This document shows, piece after piece, positions 479-5,895 of a stretch of 5,895 bases of DNA. Under the pieces are notes generated by a model. That model saw only the letters and a list, made by a program, of their open reading frames with translations. It did not search any database and had not been told where the DNA came from. The translations under genes were made by a program, and so were the position numbers. The stretch covers positions 1-5,895 of IMG/VR virus record IMGVR_UViG_3300045988_005371; one strand, 5' to 3'. Source of the stretch: a virus. The first letter of the stretch is position 1. Every line of letters begins with the position of its first letter.

Positions 479-581
479 AGTCCGCAAGTCCAAAGACGCA
501 AAAATCTACAACAAGACCGCACGAAAAACAAAAGCAATCAACCTTGGCAGCGGAGCAATGCGAGGAGGCATTAGATTATGA
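462..581 (+). CDS. Small highly basic DNA-binding/packaging protein (J / VP8-like), 39 aa: MGKRNKVRKSKDAKIYNKTARKTKAINLGSGAMRGGIRL
   Basis: Below the ORF-track length cutoff, so translated by hand. It has 13 K/R and 1 acidic residue in 39 aa. As I recall, the C-terminal RGGIRL is typical of gokushovirus small basic proteins. Its stop overlaps the next start as ATGA (578-581), and it sits directly before VP5/VP3. Confidence 0.7.
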   Translation: MGKRNKVRKSKDAKIYNKTARKTKAINLGSGAMRGGIRL

Positions 582-817
582 TTAACGTGTATGGCATCTA
601 CGACCAGTGTGCTATGTGCTACATCACCACCATTAACGAGCGCGACGATAAAGTCGCCGAACGCAATTTTAAAATTGCACTGACCGACGAACACAACATC
701 ATGAGCAAGACACCGAGCGACTACCGACTCGTGAGGCTCGCAAAGTTCGACGAGAACAACGGCACTTTTGAAGAAGCAAAGGAGAACATTTTCGATGGCA
801 TTTCGCTCAGTAAGTAA
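578..817 (+). CDS. VP5: VP5-like non-structural protein (gokushovirus ORF5 family), 79 aa
   Basis: GAGGAGG lies 9 nt upstream of the ATG. The layout (short N-terminal beta-like segment, A-x-R-x-F, then P-x-DY-x-L-x-x-L-x-x-FD-x-x-x-G-x-F) matches what I remember of Chlamydia-phage-type ORF5 proteins. Its position between the basic protein and VP3 is canonical. Confidence 0.65.
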   Translation: MINVYGIYDQCAMCYITTINERDDKVAERNFKIALTDEHNIMSKTPSDYRLVRLAKFDENNGTFEEAKENIFDGISLSK

Positions 818-1304
818 CTTCAGAGAAACCAGAACAGCAAAACCAACCGAAGCCGGAGAAAGCGTAAGGCGCACGTACATTTGGGACATCAACGAAAAAG
901 GCGAAAAAGTGCTGAAACTCGACCAGATCATTGACCAACAGGCAGAAATCGACTCCTACTTGGAAGAAACCAAGCTGGAAAACATCATCCGACGGGCAAG
1001 CATCGACCCGAACATCGCGGCGCGAATCGCGCCAGACTTAGGCGGAGGAATTCAAGATTTTACCGAAGCACCGCATACACTCGCGGAAATACAAAACATC
1101 ATGATTCGCGCAGAACAAATCTGGAACGAGGTGCCAAAAGAAATCAAGCTCAAATTTGACAACGACGTGGACAAGTTTATCTCAAGTTTCGGAAGCGTCG
1201 AATGGGCCAAAAACCTTGGTATTATGACGGAAGAGACACCTAAAGAAGAACCCAATCGGAGAGTAGAGACTAGCAAAATAACGAAAACCGAGGAGGAAAA
1301 ATGA
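795..1304 (+). CDS. VP3: VP3 internal scaffolding protein, 169 aa from the first ATG
   Basis: The track ORF begins at a TTG (768). The first ATG is at 795 with AAGGAG 11 nt upstream. The segment DFTEAPHTLAEIQNIMIRAEQIWNEVPKEIKLKFDNDVDKFISSF resembles the conserved gokushovirus scaffold core. The stop overlaps the VP1 start (ATGA 1301-1304). Confidence 0.8.
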   Translation: MAFRSVSNFRETRTAKPTEAGESVRRTYIWDINEKGEKVLKLDQIIDQQAEIDSYLEETKLENIIRRASIDPNIAARIAPDLGGGIQDFTEAPHTLAEIQNIMIRAEQIWNEVPKEIKLKFDNDVDKFISSFGSVEWAKNLGIMTEETPKEEPNRRVETSKITKTEEEK

Positions 1305-3001
1305 ACAGAAACACAGACGCAGGATTTAATCAGGTCCCAAGACTGGACATCACGCGAAGCCGCTTTAAAAGGCGGCAGAACGTAAAACTAACCATGAACG
1401 CCGGACAACTCATCCCGTTTTATGTGGATGAGGTGCTTCCGGGCGATACCTTTAGTGTCGACCAGGCGGCAATCATCCGCATGACAACCCCTATCTTCCC
1501 AGTCATGGATAACTGCTACATGGACATCTATTACTTTTTCACGCCGAACCGCATTCTGTGGAAAAACTGGAAGCGATTTATGGGCGAAAATGACACCGGG
1601 CCGTGGGCACAAAAACAAGAATACACAATCCCGCAAATCAAAGTCCAAGAAAGCGCCGGCAAAAAAGAATTGCCGCTGGAAGGCAGCCTCATGGATTACA
1701 TGGGAATCCCGACGAAAGTATGCAAGGACAAAAGTACAGAATTCGAAGTAAACGCACTGCCATTTAGAGCTTACGCAATGATATGGCAAGAGTGGTTCAG
1801 AGACCAAAATGTAGATAATCCGGCTATTAACAGCGTCGAAGACGCAACAGTAACCTACGCAGACGCCAACGACCCAAAAAACATTGAAAAACTCCTTCAG
1901 GAAGCATATCGAGGCGGCAGACCATTACCAGTAAACAAATTTCACGACTATTTCACCAGCGCACTGCCGAATCCGCAGAAAGCGGGAGAGCCAGTAAGCA
2001 TTCCGCTTAGCGGAAGTGCACCGCTAGGAATGTACAATCCGTCAACAGGAAAAGTAACAATCAACAGCGCCGAAATGAAACAAATCGCAAAAGATGTAGG
2101 ACTGTTAAACTCAGGCAGCACCTTTAACGCCGCAGATTGGGACGTCGGAGACGGGCCAGTTGCAAACAACGGACTGGCAGTGGGAAAAAATACACAGTCC
2201 ACATACACTGGAATAACCTTAGGAGCAGACCTCTCAATGGTCAACGCAACGACTATCAACCAGCTGCGACAGGCGTTTCAAGTACAAAAGTACTACGAAC
2301 AGTTAGCACGAGGCGGCAGCCGATACCGCGAGATGATTTATTCGCTGTTCCATACCAAAATCAGCGATAAAACTGTACAAATCCCGGAGTATCTGGGCGG
2401 TACGCGCATCACAATCAACATGAGCCAGGTAATCCAGACCAGCGGCACAACAGCTGAAAGTCCGCAGGGCAACACGGCAGCAGTATCCGTTACACCGTAC
2501 AACGGCAGTATGTTCACCAAGAGCTTCGAAGAGCACGGCTTTGTTATCGGTGTATGCTGCATCCGGCATGACCATACTTACCAGCAGGGACTCGAACGAA
2601 TGTGGAGTCGGAAAACCAATCTGGATTTTTATTATCCCGTCTTTGCAAATCTGGGGGAACAAGCAATCCTCAAAAAGGAAATCTATCTGAGCGGCACAGA
2701 AAAAGACGAACAGGCATTCGGATACCAAGAGGCATGGGCAGAATACCGCATGAAACCGAACAGAATAAGCGGCAAATTCCGAAGCAACGCAACAGGAACG
2801 CTGGATAGTTGGCACTATGGCGACTATTACACCGAAGCGCCGAGCTTAAGTCAAGCATGGATGAAGGAAGGAGACTCTGAAATCCAGAGAACACTCGCAG
2901 TAGACAACGAACCTCAATTTATCATGGACACGGTCATTGACAACACCAGTGTCAGACCTATGCCTATGTACAGTATTCCGGGTCTCGTAGACCATCACTA
3001 A
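1301..3001 (+). CDS. VP1: VP1 major capsid protein (Microviridae F-type jelly roll), 566 aa
   Basis: AGGAGG lies 4 nt upstream. Hallmark motifs are present: N-terminal RSRF...N.GQLIPFYVDEVLPGDTF, then TINQLRQAFQVQKYYEQLARGGSRYREMIYSLF, and a YQEAWAEYR-type C-terminal region. Confidence 0.97.
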   Translation: MNRNTDAGFNQVPRLDITRSRFKRRQNVKLTMNAGQLIPFYVDEVLPGDTFSVDQAAIIRMTTPIFPVMDNCYMDIYYFFTPNRILWKNWKRFMGENDTGPWAQKQEYTIPQIKVQESAGKKELPLEGSLMDYMGIPTKVCKDKSTEFEVNALPFRAYAMIWQEWFRDQNVDNPAINSVEDATVTYADANDPKNIEKLLQEAYRGGRPLPVNKFHDYFTSALPNPQKAGEPVSIPLSGSAPLGMYNPSTGKVTINSAEMKQIAKDVGLLNSGSTFNAADWDVGDGPVANNGLAVGKNTQSTYTGITLGADLSMVNATTINQLRQAFQVQKYYEQLARGGSRYREMIYSLFHTKISDKTVQIPEYLGGTRITINMSQVIQTSGTTAESPQGNTAAVSVTPYNGSMFTKSFEEHGFVIGVCCIRHDHTYQQGLERMWSRKTNLDFYYPVFANLGEQAILKKEIYLSGTEKDEQAFGYQEAWAEYRMKPNRISGKFRSNATGTLDSWHYGDYYTEAPSLSQAWMKEGDSEIQRTLAVDNEPQFIMDTVIDNTSVRPMPMYSIPGLVDHH

Positions 3002-3041: not shown

Positions 3042-3848
3042 ATGGCGTTAGCAGCAATCGGAAGCGCACTACTCGGAATCGGTAAACAACTGCTCCCGAC
3101 AATCGCCGGAGGTCTCATAAACAAATTCATGGGCGGAAATCTGACAGAGAGCAACGGAGGAAGCCAGCAACACAACCAAAGCTACAGCCAAGGCGGAGGC
3201 CAAAGCAGCAGCGAAAGCGGCGTAAACCGAGCACAAAATCTGCAAGACTGGAATAGCATGCTAGGAGCAATTCAGGGAAACATGCAAAGCCAGCAGAAAT
3301 TTAACCGTCGAAGCATGTTCGAACAGATGGGCTACAACACCATGGCAGCAATCACACAAGGTGTATATAACCAGATAAGTAACAATGCAGCGATGAGCTA
3401 CAACAGCGCAGAGGCGGCAAAAAATCGTGCATGGCAAGAGCAAATGAGTAACACAGCATATCAAAGAGCAGTGGAAGATATGCGTAAAGCCGGCATCAAC
3501 CCAATCCTAGCATACCAGCAAGGCGGAGCAAGTACGCCGGGTGGAGCACAAGGCACTATTAGTGGGGCAAGCATGGGACTGGCGAGCAGTAGTGCAGCAA
3601 GCGCAAGTGCTCTAGGAGTAAGTCAAAACCACAACAACACATGGAGCAGGAGCGAAAGTAACTGGTACAACGCAGCACAGGCGGTCGGAGACGCAACAAG
3701 CTGGAGTCATACAAGTGCAGACAAGGCGCTGAAGGAATTCAGAAACGTCCTTAGCAGCCTCGACAACTTAGGAAATCAAGGCGGCCAATACAATCATCAA
3801 AATGGCGGTGGCAAAACTCACGGCGGCGGCGCAGGAAGAGGAAGGTAA
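3042..3848 (+). CDS. VP2: VP2 minor capsid / DNA pilot protein, 268 aa
   Basis: Hydrophobic N-terminus (MALAAIGSALLGIGKQLLPTIAGGLI). Q/S/G-rich low-complexity segments. Conserved motif MSNTAYQRAVEDMRKAGINPILAY typical of gokushovirus VP2. Located right after VP1. Confidence 0.85.
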   Translation: MALAAIGSALLGIGKQLLPTIAGGLINKFMGGNLTESNGGSQQHNQSYSQGGGQSSSESGVNRAQNLQDWNSMLGAIQGNMQSQQKFNRRSMFEQMGYNTMAAITQGVYNQISNNAAMSYNSAEAAKNRAWQEQMSNTAYQRAVEDMRKAGINPILAYQQGGASTPGGAQGTISGASMGLASSSAASASALGVSQNHNNTWSRSESNWYNAAQAVGDATSWSHTSADKALKEFRNVLSSLDNLGNQGGQYNHQNGGGKTHGGGAGRGR

Positions 3849-3849
3849 A

Positions 3850-4869
3850 ATGGGATGCAATAAACCATTAATCCGGTTTTATGTACCTCACGACAGAGAA
3901 GCGAGTGGGCGAGTATACTCACTCGCTTCTTTTAACAAAATACATAAGACAAACCTTAGGTATGAAGACCTAATGTACAGAAAAGATGTAATGTTGATAC
4001 CGTGCGGACAATGTACCGGATGCAGACTACGCAAGCGCAAAGATTGGTCAACGCGGATGGAACTAGAAGCATATGGACACAACAAAGAAAGTATCTGGTT
4101 TATCACACTAACTTACGATGATGACCATGTACCAACACAGGACACAAATACAGGCGAAATCTACAAAGGCGGCATAAACATCTGGGAAGGCCTCTCAGAG
4201 CGTCCGAGAACGGCGCAAACTCTAAGCGTAGAGGATACCCAACTATTTATAAAAAGGCTCAGAAAGGCCGTCAAAGAGCCTCTGAGATACTTTTTAGCAG
4301 GAGAGTACGGAGACAACACAGCGAGACCGCACTATCACATGATACTATATGGGTGGTATCCAGACGACTTAAAGCCAATTCACAAATTGTCAAGACACGG
4401 TCATTATACAAGCGATAAGCTAGTAAAAATCTGGGGACAGGGTGCAGTTGACATAGCGCAAGCAACCCCAGAAACATATAATTATGTTGCAGGGTATGTA
4501 ACCAAAAAGCTGTACGGCAACGACAAAAAACGTTACCAAAAAATGGGTTTAATACCACCATTTTGCACAATGAGCCGAAAGCCGGGACTCGGGGACAAGT
4601 GGTTCGAAGACAACCAAACAAGACTCTGGCAGCAAGGGTACATACAACTTACCAACGGCAAGAGAGCGACAATACCAGAATACTATTGGCGGAAACTGGA
4701 AGCCGAAAACCCTGAAAAAGCATGGAGAATCAAGAAGAATCGACAAGAAAAAGCTATAGCGTCCTTAATCGAAAGAAACGCGGAAACCGATAAACCATAC
4801 GCAGAACAGTTAAAAGACAAAGAAGCATCCATGTCGAAGAAAATGAGCAAAGCCAAAGGCGTATTTTGA
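3850..4869 (+). CDS. VP4: VP4 replication initiation protein (HUH rolling-circle endonuclease), 339 aa from ATG 3850
   Basis: Cys cluster PCGQCTGCR (Cys52 at 4003). Motif 1 FITLTY. HUH motif HYH at 4330-4338. Catalytic motif YVAGYVTKK (Y212/Y216/K219, 4483-4506). ATG 3850 follows the VP2 stop by 1 nt and has a GGAAGAGGAAGG purine tract upstream. The 3802 start would overlap VP2 by 47 nt. Confidence 0.95.
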   Translation: MGCNKPLIRFYVPHDREASGRVYSLASFNKIHKTNLRYEDLMYRKDVMLIPCGQCTGCRLRKRKDWSTRMELEAYGHNKESIWFITLTYDDDHVPTQDTNTGEIYKGGINIWEGLSERPRTAQTLSVEDTQLFIKRLRKAVKEPLRYFLAGEYGDNTARPHYHMILYGWYPDDLKPIHKLSRHGHYTSDKLVKIWGQGAVDIAQATPETYNYVAGYVTKKLYGNDKKRYQKMGLIPPFCTMSRKPGLGDKWFEDNQTRLWQQGYIQLTNGKRATIPEYYWRKLEAENPEKAWRIKKNRQEKAIASLIERNAETDKPYAEQLKDKEASMSKKMSKAKGVF

Positions 4870-4879
4870 CACTTTGGTG

Positions 4880-4929
4880 TCACTCAGCCAAGTAACTATC
4901 AAGTAAGCTACTTGGCTGAGTGATTTTTT
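4880..4929 (+). terminator. Strong rho-independent terminator after VP4
   Basis: Perfect 15-bp stem: TCACTCAGCCAAGTA (4880-4894) pairs with TACTTGGCTGAGTGA (4909-4923). The loop is 14 nt and is followed by T6 (4924-4929). Confidence 0.85.
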
Positions 4930-4941
4930 AATTTGTTAAAT

Positions 4942-4981
4942 GCACACGCACGCGCACGTAATCGCGCACGCGCACGTGCAT
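4942..4981. repeat. Two GC-rich alternating purine-pyrimidine tracts containing a 13-nt direct repeat CGCACGCGCACGT (4947-4959, 4965-4977)
   Basis: 4942-4959 and 4963-4981 alternate purine and pyrimidine without interruption. They are bracketed by ATGCAC (4940-4945) and GTGCAT (4976-4981) and embedded in AT-rich sequence. Confidence 0.8.
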
Positions 4982-5010
4982 TATATTATTATTTTTATTA
5001 TTAACTTGTT

Positions 5011-5026
5011 GTAGTAGTAGTAGTAG
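5011..5026. repeat. (GTA)5 trinucleotide microsatellite
   Basis: GTAGTAGTAGTAGTAG read directly. It lies after an ATT/TTA-rich run at 4981-5004. Confidence 0.9.
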
Positions 5027-5037
5027 GGAGTGTTGAA

Positions 5038-5121
5038 ATGTTGAATACTACGAATTTTTATCCTTGGAACGATATTTTTTGGTTAATCTTAATGTTGATA
5101 CTTTTGTGGAAAACTTGTTGA
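5038..5121 (+). CDS. Candidate 27-aa hydrophobic micropeptide MLNTTNFYPWNDIFWLILMLILLWKTC
   Basis: ATG 5038 has GGGAG (5026-5030) 7 nt upstream and the stop is TGA 5119-5121. The segment IFWLILMLILLW is membrane-like. The ORF lies inside the repeat array downstream of a strong terminator, so it may be fortuitous. Confidence 0.25.
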   Translation: MLNTTNFYPWNDIFWLILMLILLWKTC

Positions 5122-5186
5122 ATTGTTGAAAGTGTAGCAATATGCACAAAAACCTTTGTGCAACATTTTGTGGAAAACCTGTTGAA
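5102..5186 (+). repeat. Two 21-nt direct repeats TTTTGTGGAAAAC(T/C)TGTTGAA (5102-5122 and 5166-5186)
   Basis: 20 of 21 positions are identical and the copies are 64 nt apart. Each contains TGTGGAAAA, whose complement TTTTCCACA fits the relaxed DnaA-box consensus TT(A/T)TNCACA. Confidence 0.85.
5143..5162. other. Perfect 8-bp hairpin TGCACAAA-AACC-TTTGTGCA between the 21-nt repeats
   Basis: All 8 pairs were checked. The loop is AACC. Alternative TTTGTG partners exist at 5103-5108 and 5167-5172. Confidence 0.7.
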
Positions 5187-5325
5187 AGTGTTAAAAGTGT
5201 TGAAAAAAGAATTAAAGGCCGTCCGGCAAGCAAAACCGAAAAGTTGCGTCATGCTCTTCGCACGGCGCACCGCGCCTAGCGCATGACCTTCAAGACAAAA
5301 TTCTTCTATTTTTTTTTAAAAAACC

Positions 5326-5354
5326 TTGACTTTTTCCAAAAAATATGATAGAAT
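5326..5354 (+). promoter_or_regulatory. Near-consensus sigma70/sigmaA promoter with extended -10 (TTGACT, 17 nt, TGaTAGAAT)
   Basis: -35 TTGACT at 5326-5331. The spacer is exactly 17 nt. TG is at 5346-5347 and -10 TAGAAT at 5349-5354. A T9A6 UP-like element sits at 5309-5323. A perfect TATAAT also occurs at 5354-5359. Confidence 0.75.
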
Positions 5355-5356
5355 AT

Positions 5357-5373
5357 AATCAAAGAAAGGAAGG
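5357..5373 (+). repeat. 17-nt leader repeat AATCAAAGAAAGGAAGG, copy 1 (contains the SD of ORF 5381)
   Basis: Identical to 5567-5583. Confidence 0.9.
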
Positions 5374-5380
5374 AATTAAA

Positions 5381-5560
5381 ATGAAGCAAAAGGAATACAA
5401 GTTCTTGGCAAAAATCACCTACAACGACGGCAAAGAAGAGTTAAATCCTTTTATCGACTACACGGCAAGCGCAAGAGCGCGAGCCAAAAAAGTAGCAAGG
5501 AGACCAGACGTATACACAGTAAAACTATACAGGATAGACAAAACCGAAGAATTTATCTAA
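5381..5560 (+). CDS. Hypothetical accessory protein, 59 aa (MKQKEYKFLAKITYNDGKEELNPFIDYTASARARAKKVARRPDVYTVKLYRIDKTEEFI)
   Basis: ATG 5381 has an AAGGAAGG SD upstream. The track start at 5345 lies inside the promoter -10 region. It is the first gene of a unit bounded by a promoter and a terminator. I recognise no family. Confidence 0.7.
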   Translation: MKQKEYKFLAKITYNDGKEELNPFIDYTASARARAKKVARRPDVYTVKLYRIDKTEEFI

Positions 5561-5566
5561 AGACTG

Positions 5567-5583
5567 AATCAAAGAAAGGAAGG
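5567..5583 (+). repeat. 17-nt leader repeat AATCAAAGAAAGGAAGG, copy 2 (contains the SD of ORF 5592)
   Basis: Identical to 5357-5373. Confidence 0.9.
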
Positions 5584-5591
5584 CAACAAAA

Positions 5592-5783
5592 ATGAAAAAG
5601 CCTAAACTAAACGAAAAAACCATCACAAGACTCGAAATCTACGGACAAGTATGGTGCAACAAATATTACTACGAGCTGAAAGACTACATAGACACAGAAG
5701 GAAACCGTTACACGATGCTTGAACGGACAAATCTTAGAACCGGAGGCATAGACGAATTCAATTGGGAAGAATACATTAAATAG
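5592..5783 (+). CDS. Hypothetical accessory protein, 63 aa (MKKPKLNEKTITRLEIYGQVWCNKYYYELKDYIDTEGNRYTMLERTNLRTGGIDEFNWEEYIK)
   Basis: ATG 5592 has the same AAGGAAGG SD upstream. The TAG stop lies inside the terminator stem. I recognise no family. Confidence 0.7.
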   Translation: MKKPKLNEKTITRLEIYGQVWCNKYYYELKDYIDTEGNRYTMLERTNLRTGGIDEFNWEEYIK

Positions 5784-5809
5784 GCTTGACAAGCCTATTT
5801 TTTTTTTTT
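5778..5809 (+). terminator. Rho-independent terminator of the two-ORF cassette
   Basis: TAGGCTT (5781-5787), GAC loop, AAGCCTA (5791-5797). Flanking A/T pairs extend the stem to 10 bp. It is followed by T12 (5798-5809). Confidence 0.75.
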
Positions 5810-5814
5810 ATACT
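5786..5814 (+). promoter_or_regulatory. Putative main-operon promoter TTGACA, 17 nt, TATACT, overlapping the terminator
   Basis: Consensus -35 TTGACA at 5786-5791 spans the hairpin loop. The spacer is exactly 17 nt and is mostly the T-tract. -10 TATACT is at 5809-5814, equal to 13-18 in the first repeat copy. It points into the gene block that starts at the 81-86 SD. Confidence 0.6.
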
Positions 5815-5895
5815 GAAAACAGTTAAACAGCACAAAAGTGCTCTTTTACAAAACCATTTATACAAAAATAATTTTTAGGAGGTATATGCTCTGAC
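5797..5895. repeat. Terminal direct repeat, copy B (identical to 1..99)
   Basis: See copy A. Confidence 0.95.

Follow-up and report, generated by a model that had tools for sequence, protein, structure and literature searches.

The virus record IMGVR_UViG_3300045988_005371 of IMG/VR, taken here as a window of 5,895 nt that covers the whole stretch of DNA analysed, is a complete circular gokushovirus genome encoding VP1 to VP5. Downstream of its Rep gene, VP4, lies a non-coding block with direct TGTTGAA repeats, and the question raised by this locus is what the block does and whether it is read by the phage Rep or by a protein of the host. An earlier note on this DNA had proposed a candidate replication origin made of Rep iterons, a hairpin and DnaA-box-like repeats. 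The block is very probably a replication-related cis element and host DnaA is supported as the relevant protein, but the mechanism based on Rep iterons and a hairpin was not borne out. With a probability of roughly 0.7, positions 4980-5206 are instead a phage-borne replica of a DnaA-dependent unwinding module, the 'oriC2/incC' basal unwinding system (BUS) of Firmicutes dnaA-dnaN origins, which suggests that the phage recruits the host initiator DnaA. The reading draws on the architecture of the element, its identity with bacterial origins, its conservation and the lack of a conserved protein product; DnaA binding, unwinding and downstream use are predicted from these. Most likely the element acts on the double-stranded replicative form, as an origin or unwinding element that depends on DnaA, with its exact role predicted in the same way.

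The element is longer than the repeat region 5031-5204 that had been flagged. The repeats do fall inside those limits, but the most diagnostic part (4980-5030), which comprises an A/T run, the invariant sequence TAACTTGTTG, five TAG trinucleotides and a G-rich spacer, lies outside them; the element starts at about 4980 and ends at 5206. Its parts are as follows, with the boxes understood as predicted DnaA boxes:

4980-5004, no strand assigned: 25-nt pure A/T run, candidate duplex-unwinding element (DUE).
5002-5011, plus strand: phage-specific invariant TAACTTGTTG, candidate VP4 recognition or nick site (a lead only).
5012-5026, plus strand: DnaA-trio tract, five copies of 5'-TAG-3' (five of 3'-GAT-5').
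5027-5030, no strand assigned: G-rich spacer GGAG, 4 nt.
5031-5039, plus strand: trio-proximal DnaA box TGTTGAAAT, included in the pattern found at bacterial origins.
5039-5047, plus strand: second, distal tandem DnaA box TGTTGAATA, with GTTGAA invariant, starting 12-13 nt from the trios.
5048-5092, no strand assigned: spacer of fixed length and variable sequence, which differs completely between lineages.
5093-5131, plus strand: box cluster 2, with TGTTGATA (5093), TGTGGAAA (5105), TGTTGAAT (5116) and TGTTGAAA (5124).
5139-5165, no strand assigned: lineage-specific spacer with head-to-head box-like sequences ATATGCACA (minus sense) and TGTGCAACA (plus sense), which form the hairpin 5143-5162.
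5169-5206, plus strand: box cluster 3, with TGTGGAAA (5169), TGTTGAAA (5180), TGTTAAAA (5189) and TGTTGAAAA (5198).

The repeats themselves were found largely as first described. TGTTGAA occurs exactly six times in the window, always on the plus strand (at 5031, 5039, 5116, 5124, 5180 and 5198), against a shuffle expectation of 1.15 per whole window; six copies were reached in one of 200 shuffles. Plus-strand copies with one mismatch are also present in the region (TGTTGAT at 5093, TGTGGAA at 5105 and 5169, TGTTAAA at 5189), four rather than the three reported if the TGTGGAA copies are counted. The start-to-start spacing is 8 nt in the pairs 5031/5039 and 5116/5124 and 9 nt in the triplet 5180/5189/5198, as claimed, and the same holds for the two 21-mers that are identical at 20 of 21 positions (5102-5122 and 5166-5186), for their minus-strand matches to TTWTNCACA (5105-5113 and 5169-5177), and for the perfect 8-bp inverted repeat 5143-5150/5155-5162 with its loop of 4 nt. 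The degenerate motif TGTKGAWA occurs nine times, seven of them within 5031-5205, compared with 0.96 expected, and none of 200 shuffles reached nine. Alignment columns were counted over 101 distinct sequences of relatives, box offsets over 147 distinct genomes and occurrences of TAACTTGTTG over 138 genomes. At position 5034, 63 of the 101 relatives have T and 38 have G, and at position 5108 the split is 60 G to 41 T; these exchanges make TGTTGAA and TGTGGAA one motif. Position 5111 is divided between A (52) and T (48). Thus, TGTTGAA and TGTGGAAAA are a single motif, TGT[T/G]GA[A/T]A, present in 10-11 copies in one orientation. The divergent copy at 5189 is a private degeneration of TGTTGAA, with G at position 5193 in 93 of 101 relatives and TGTTGAAA as the consensus at this site.

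In BUS, DnaA boxes are separated by no more than 16 bp, including a GC gap averaging 4 bp, from three or more DnaA-trios (3'-NAN-5', consensus 3'-GAT-5'), which provide the 5' single-stranded tail for DnaA oligomerisation; the distance from the distal box to the trios peaks at 10-13 bp, and formation of the filament on the trios needs adjacent duplex boxes, duplex DNA being what DnaA domain IV binds (PMC8287927). Under the published rule a box has at most two mismatches to TTATCCACA or is a species-specific box. In Bacillus subtilis the strand opposite the trios reads 5'-CTACTATTACTTCTACTA-3', giving TAG TAG AAG TAA TAG TAG on the trio strand, and in the model for this species a DnaA filament scaffolds helicase loading on that strand (PMC10201434). 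The dnaA-dnaN origin of Clostridium difficile contains 5'-CACCTACTACTATTACTACTATGA-3', and DnaA-dependent melting has been shown there by experiment (PMC7561715).

The phage element shares the order and orientation of its parts with the BUS of the B. subtilis and C. difficile oriC (Richardson 2016; Pelliciari 2021, PMC8287927; Oliveira Paiva 2020, PMC7561715), which is made up of DnaA boxes 6/7, a GC cluster, trios and an A/T-rich DUE in the dnaA-dnaN region. On the trio strand the order is 5'-A/T run, TAG trios, a G-rich gap of about 4 nt and tandem boxes-3'. The trio sequence is the same, the distal box lies 12-13 nt from the trios in both, and further box clusters follow nearby. Five consecutive trios with a central A occupy 5012-5026, and on the strand of the trios the boxes at 5031 and 5039 start 4 and 12 nt downstream of the last one, with the trios forming the 5' tail of the strand that reads TGTGGATAA. 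The gap between them is GGAG (5027-5030), with the distal box 12-13 nt past the trios, and beyond the trios comes the A/T run 4980-5004, the longest A/T-only run of the genome and the sole 25-nt window with 100% A+T. It lies on the side of the trios that faces away from the boxes, as in bacterial dnaA-dnaN origins, and its sequence varies among relatives with A/T-richness kept. The trios read TAG, NMG, TAG, TAG and TAG in the 101 relatives, the second alone being variable and the other four invariant. The spacer 5027-5030 is variable but G- or purine-rich, and in bacteria it is GGGGC or GGGAC. The differences from BUS concern the setting, a 5.8-kb rolling-circle single-stranded DNA (ssDNA) phage with the module downstream of the Rep gene rather than between dnaA and dnaN, the invariant TAACTTGTTG joined directly to the trios on their 5' side, fixed box-cluster offsets specific to the phages, and the lack of a second (dnaA-upstream) origin half. 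The element is found not in an rpmH-dnaA-dnaN region of a chromosome but in a circular gokushovirus genome.

The same core was recovered from bacterial chromosomes. One genome per GTDB species (596 Gb in total) was scanned with the pattern GTAGTAGTAGNNNNNGTKGAAANGTTGAA, taken from 29 nt of the phage (5017-5045) and holding 22 fixed bases, for which chance matches are expected to be well below one in 596 Gb. It matched 60 bacterial contigs, mostly long ones, from Ruminococcus, Oscillospiraceae, Ruthenibacterium, Lachnospiraceae, Selenomonas (including three isolates), Phascolarctobacterium and others. Within the 8 kb fetched for each locus, 58 of the 60 contigs have dnaN and/or dnaA next to the site and 47 have both, with the identities of DnaA and DnaN confirmed by NCBIfam. 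The two genes lie opposite to the pattern strand, with the A/T-and-trio side toward the dnaN start and the box side toward the dnaA end; the sole exception in orientation is a Fusobacteriota locus (L137) with dnaA on the other strand. The remaining two contigs, L135 (a 5071-nt contig binned as Rhodothermaceae) and L155 (Ca. Improbicoccus), have no dnaA or dnaN in the fetched stretch. One locus binned as Alistipes (L147) has TGTTGAA-type boxes and encodes a DnaA 85% identical to one of three Firmicutes DnaA queries, and its binning looks doubtful. VP1 and VP4 are encoded by none of the 60 loci, and a prophage or attachment site was rejected on this ground. Judged by its sequence, phage segment 5012-5047 is thus a replica of the Firmicutes chromosomal-origin core. 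The core TAGTAGTAG-GGNNN-GTKGAAA-NGTTGAA is kept from Oscillospirales to Negativicutes (Selenomonas, Phascolarctobacterium; loci L103-L162). Upstream of the trios, TAACTTGTTG is absent from the bacterial origins. In blastn comparisons, similarity between phage and bacterial origins was confined to about 31-41 nt at 83-94% identity (Ruminococcus and Oscillospiraceae origins); past this segment the resemblance is one of motif grammar, as in TGTTGAAAACTTGTTGAAAGTGTTGAAAAC of locus L123. Recent capture from a sampled host was rejected, given that the high-identity similarity ends there.

Bacteria with the core differ in the boxes that accompany it, and the difference follows DnaA itself. In origins of Ruminococcus, Oscillospiraceae and "Eubacteriales" the commonest 9-mer is TGTTGAAAA (110 occurrences), with TGTGGAAAA as a minor variant. 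The origins of Selenomonas and Lachnospiraceae have the trio-proximal core in common with them but otherwise carry canonical TTATCCACA boxes. Loci whose DnaA reads DHST[I/V][V/K]Y have on average 8.9 TGTTGAA-type and 1.2 canonical boxes, and those with DHTTVLH have 1.0 and 3.8, respectively. Base-specific contacts of DnaA have been reported for R399, P423, D433, H434, T435 and H439, and the changes seen here, T435S and H439Y (Escherichia coli numbering), affect two of these six residues. The T/G exchange at box position 4 is found in the phages and likewise in bacteria. No other evidence at hand speaks as strongly for the phage heptamers being DnaA boxes as this co-variation of box type with DnaA residues. 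The phage boxes represent the TGTTGAAA(A) variant of Oscillospirales-type bacteria, and therefore Ruminococcus and Oscillospiraceae are the predicted hosts, consistent with the faecal sources of all relatives. In the literature covered, the box variant TGTTGAAAA with T435S/H439Y is not described.

The module is conserved across microviruses to a degree that their proteins are not. In a whole-genome megablast against GenBank phages, the non-coding block was the sole detectable similarity for many gokushoviruses. In a sensitive search the block was recovered from 45 records; in the seven loci checked by annotation or VP4 position, it follows VP4 at a distance of about 100-300 nt. A scan of IMG/VR for exact 21-mers yielded 97 microvirus contigs. 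Some of these share about 91% nucleotide identity with the window over about 300 nt of the block, with VP1 about 50% and VP4 about 44% identical. In the 101 sequences the motif copies are the conserved unit and the spacers drift, mostly by A/T swaps. A second IMG/VR scan, with a pattern for the trios plus proximal box only, gave at least 120 contigs, all but one of those listed being microvirus-sized; it added 46 new genomes that lack the exact 21-mer and have unrelated spacers with an identical plan. At least 147 distinct microvirus genomes therefore carry the module. In these 147, a box stands at +4 from the last trio in 79% and boxes at +66 (78%), +78, +89 and +97 in 78-87%; the +12 box is found in 38% under the strict motif, its GTTGAA core being invariant. 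Cluster 3 begins its copies at +141/142, +152/153, +161/162 and +170/171, and 88% of plus-strand box copies fall inside a 190-nt segment. The phasing of the heptamers in relatives, which the earlier note had itself set as a test, is thus kept, and fixed spacing combined with free spacer sequence is what would be expected where protein assembles on DNA in a defined geometry. Two processes seem to shape the block: vertical divergence, which gives different spacers, and transfer between distant lineages, which gives near-identical spacers at about 44% VP4 identity. The module is a feature of a broad gut clade, in which VP1 is 42-95% identical to that of the window, not of all gokushoviruses.

Origin-like sequences were also looked at in other viral records. 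An IMG/VR scan with the canonical version of the pattern (TAGTAGTAG-N3-7-TGTGGATAA) returned 32 matches, none with a tblastn match to VP1 or VP4 of this phage. Complete oriC-like modules (A/T run, (TAG)3-5, GGGG and TGTGGATAA arrays) are present in large IMG/VR contigs of 9-162 kb (L234/L243/L258, L242, L249, L254, L256, L257 and L262), and a 23.6-kb contig (L188) is likewise oriC-like with TGTTGAAAA-type boxes; these could be mis-called bacterial origin fragments, or double-stranded DNA phages or phage-plasmids with DnaA-dependent origins. In Chlamydia phage 2 (Chp2; L266, AJ270057), a tandem pair of TGTGCAAAA at 2817-2842, 12 nt apart in the VP3-ORF8 intergenic region, fits the DnaA-box consensus TGTGNAWAA and provides the only such matches in that genome, which may hint at the use of DnaA in another gokushovirus lineage.

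Besides the module motifs, only one other sequence is conserved across all these phages. The 9-mers of TAACTTGTTG, which lie outside both search patterns, occur in 91-100% of 138 genomes. The sequence shares the hexamer AACTTG, and only the hexamer, with the phiX174 origin CAACTTG/ATATTAATAAC, as read from the NC_001422 annotation (rep_origin at 4306); Chp2 has no AACTTG anywhere. TAACTTGTTG may be a VP4 substrate that is exposed by DnaA-driven melting, a lead that rests on this hexamer. The candidate ssDNA cleavage substrate of VP4 would carry TAACTTGTTGTAG, and with such a composite origin the nick would fall after AACTTG.

We propose the following course of events, the simplest reading, which follows what is established for oriC. 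In the predicted fold of the single strand the boxes are unpaired and the block is largely unstructured; since DnaA domain IV binds duplex boxes, the module should act on the replicative form. There, host DnaA-ATP would occupy the box array, and the DnaA filament would extend onto the plus-strand trios and melt the adjoining A/T run. The opened region would load host helicase and primase on the plus strand, which would be the template for priming of minus strands, the task of the PriA primosome in phiX174; the outcome would be DnaA-dependent replication of the replicative form. Alternatively or additionally, the edge of the bubble would expose TAACTTGTTG as a single-stranded substrate for the HUH nuclease VP4. 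A stronger version, which we regard as possible but less likely than not, is that a large group of gut gokushoviruses acquired a working origin-opening module with which host DnaA fires double-stranded-form replication instead of, or upstream of, Rep, and that TAACTTGTTG is the Rep nick site.

Several points weigh against a DnaA-dependent module. Rolling-circle phages are not known to need DnaA, and the phiX174 paradigm is one of gpA, Rep helicase and the PriA primosome. The proximal box TGTTGAAAT has three mismatches to the E. coli consensus TTATCCACA, compared with one to the host-type box TGTTGAAAA, and for the published box rule to be passed, either the box must be taken as host-specific or G must stand at 5034, as it does in 38% of relatives (1-2 mismatches). 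The box spacing of 8-9 nt is tighter than a 9-bp box plus a gap, and binding of TGTTGAA-type boxes or of this fragment by any DnaA is a prediction from sequence comparison. The short similarity of 31-41 nt is compatible either with homology by capture or with convergence on a host factor. The module is also absent from the cultured gokushoviruses Chp2, phiMH2K and SpV4 and is not generally required for gokushovirus replication.

The main rival is that DnaA binds here for a purpose other than replication, either pure titration or transcriptional control. About 11 boxes on a replicative form that is multicopy by nature could act as a sink for DnaA-ATP, with no replication start at this site, shutting down host initiation or sensing the growth state; or bound DnaA could regulate the promoter 120 nt downstream. 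DnaA is known to act as a transcription factor as well, titration sites of the datA kind exist, boxes are densely packed here, and the promoter at 5326-5354 is a good, conserved one of the sigma-70 type (TTGACT-17-TAGAAT with a TG extension). A sink or operator, however, needs no trios, G-rich spacer or A/T run in the exact arrangement of an origin, and these are the most invariant parts of the block; moreover, the array ends more than 120 nt from the -35 element. We therefore consider this explanation unlikely, though it is the one most worth keeping in mind. Far less credit is due to the idea that the TGTTGAA copies are Spo0A 0A boxes, which would keep the phage silent in sporulating hosts in the manner of phi29. 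Clostridia, the class of the predicted hosts, include spore-formers, and TGTTGAA agrees with the 0A box TGTCGAA at six of seven positions. The 0A box has a conserved CG at positions 4-5, whereas position 4 is always T or G and never C in the 11 copies and in both variable boxes of the 101 relatives, and the motif, which is linked to trios, goes together with changes in DnaA residues, all of which makes this reading scarcely credible.

The other two explanations keep more of the earlier proposal. If the heptamers were iterons of the HUH Rep VP4, the stem-loop 5143-5162 would carry or position the rolling-circle nick, and one-orientation direct repeats beside a perfect 8-bp hairpin do look like such an origin; nucleotide conservation across all these phages is limited to this block, so that the VP4 origin may well lie nearby, and TAACTTGTTG resembles the phiX174 nick context. 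Iterons are expected to co-vary with their Rep, but the motif is unchanged with VP4 at 36-95% identity and stays constant where VP4 falls to 36-44%, and block and VP4 identities diverge as widely as the 91% and 44% given above. The same repeats stand at the chromosomal origins of bacteria that have no VP4, and TGTTGAA is one motif with TGTGGAA rather than a separate class. The hairpin is not a core element either: no compensatory substitutions were found in it, 30 of 101 relatives have a 1-nt deletion in its 5' arm, its 4-nt loop is variable, and unrelated sequence replaces it in other lineages, so that no nick stem-loop is kept across them. Its arms are best read as two head-to-head box-like sequences, and a VP4 iteron origin seems very improbable. 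Somewhat less remote, yet still improbable, is a complementary-strand origin on the incoming single strand, where a DnaA-box hairpin (as in the A-site or ABC primosome of E. coli) or the flanking hairpins would prime the minus strand. The trios are on the packaged (plus) strand, part of a DnaA box (TGTGCA) becomes duplex in the stem 5143-5162, there are strong hairpins at 4880-4923, 4939-4982 and 5248-5287, and a hairpin is believed necessary for microviruses to initiate the minus strand (PMC9865509). Ten of the 11 boxes, however, are direct repeats with no partner and would be single-stranded in virion DNA, a state that does not suit the duplex binding of domain IV or the need of a trio filament for adjacent duplex boxes, and the only box-containing hairpin is not kept outside this lineage. 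DnaA-dependent priming on the single strand, which had also been suggested, is for these reasons not favoured.

Other explanations of the block were also considered. An open reading frame (ORF) at 5142-5279, which some GenBank records of relatives list as a hypothetical protein, was rejected: it has no Pfam or PHROG match, its length ranges from 10 to 85 amino acids in relatives, and its frame shifts with a 1-nt indel with the DNA motif kept. Minus-strand ORFs were dismissed, the recognised (Pfam- or PHROG-supported) genes all being on the plus strand. For the whole window, Rfam gave no match to a known RNA family at E <= 1. Within the array, the only sign of a sigma-70 promoter was a weak minus-strand match.

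The genome in which the module resides is circular, bases 1-99 being an exact direct repeat of 5797-5895, which gives a true length of 5796 nt. Promoter-like sites at 49-76 and 5845-5872 are accordingly one site counted twice. By the rule of the family, the plus (coding) strand is also the packaged strand. The recognised genes are:

578-817, plus strand: VP5.
768-1304, plus strand: VP3.
1301-3001, plus strand: VP1.
3042-3848, plus strand: VP2.
3802-4869, plus strand: VP4/Rep, with HUH and Y motifs.

The module lies 110 nt downstream of VP4, in the 475 nt of non-coding sequence that separate the VP4 stop codon (4869) from the promoter-like site 5326-5354, a conserved sigma-70-type site with an extended -10 element (TTGACT-17-tgTAGAAT; consensus TTGACA...TGGTATAAT). 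Two small ORFs with no assigned function (5381-5560 and 5592-5783) follow this promoter; they have no Pfam or PHROG match and share a common leader AATCAAAGAAAGGAAGG (5360-5380 and 5570-5591). ORF 251-478 has no PHROG match and only two weak, sub-threshold DUF matches in Pfam. As candidates for a binding protein, these three small ORFs thus gave no convincing family match. The three strong hairpins flank the module, and their covariation is uninformative in alignments that are shallow and include close relatives only. That at 4880-4923, just past the VP4 stop, has an 18-bp stem followed by a T-run and is terminator-like; 4939-4982 is a CG-rich imperfect palindrome that holds CGCACGCGCACGT twice, with (CGCGCAC)n palindromes of a similar kind ahead of the A/T run in most relatives; and 5248-5287 is GC-rich.

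Partial parallels to the phage module exist among other replicons. Host DnaA boxes next to an A/T-rich region are a feature of mobile replicons among plasmids and temperate phages, such as P1 oriR, pSC101, F and RK2, and of oriC minichromosomes. These replicons replicate in the theta mode and have only a few DnaA boxes, alongside iterons that serve their own Rep, whereas the phage block has host-type boxes throughout, together with trios, in a genome with an HUH rolling-circle initiator. phiX174 has its gpA origin inside gene A and a PriA primosome hairpin in the F-G intergenic region. It belongs to the same family, the block contains AACTTG in an invariant context, and in both phages a host primosome or helicase must load on the plus strand. 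Unlike the phage block, however, the phiX174 origin lies in coding sequence and has no DnaA boxes, and its primosome assembles at a hairpin recognised by PriA instead of at a duplex DnaA array. The single-strand origins (sso) of Gram-positive rolling-circle plasmids are extensively paired ssDNA recognised by RNA polymerase or PriA. The block resembles an sso in being non-coding, orientation-specific, host-read, exchanged between replicons with different Reps and more conserved than these Reps, but differs from it in being largely unstructured as ssDNA. Recent work infers microvirus replication signals from hairpins alone, by analogy with phiX174 (PMC9865509). In full-text literature searches we found no report of DnaA boxes or trios in Microviridae, gokushoviruses or phages.

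The Gokushovirinae are the dominant ssDNA phages of animal guts, and their replication signals are essentially unmapped. The module described here is a concrete candidate for a link between the host initiator DnaA and an ssDNA phage of the rolling-circle type, a connection not anticipated by the phiX174 paradigm or by the literature covered. The box dialect offers a handle for host prediction, pointing to Ruminococcus and Oscillospiraceae for more than 140 uncultured phages, and a by-product of the analysis is a DnaA-box variant with a matching change of DnaA residues in a major gut bacterial order. If functional, the module of about 230 bp would be a compact unit for building replicons in gut Clostridia that are hard to engineer, and it would suggest plasmid-like carriage or cell-cycle coupling of microviruses. 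Should the stronger version hold, in which host DnaA fires replication of the double-stranded form, these phages would be natural 'minichromosome viruses', with plasmid-like persistence and coupling to the host cell cycle.

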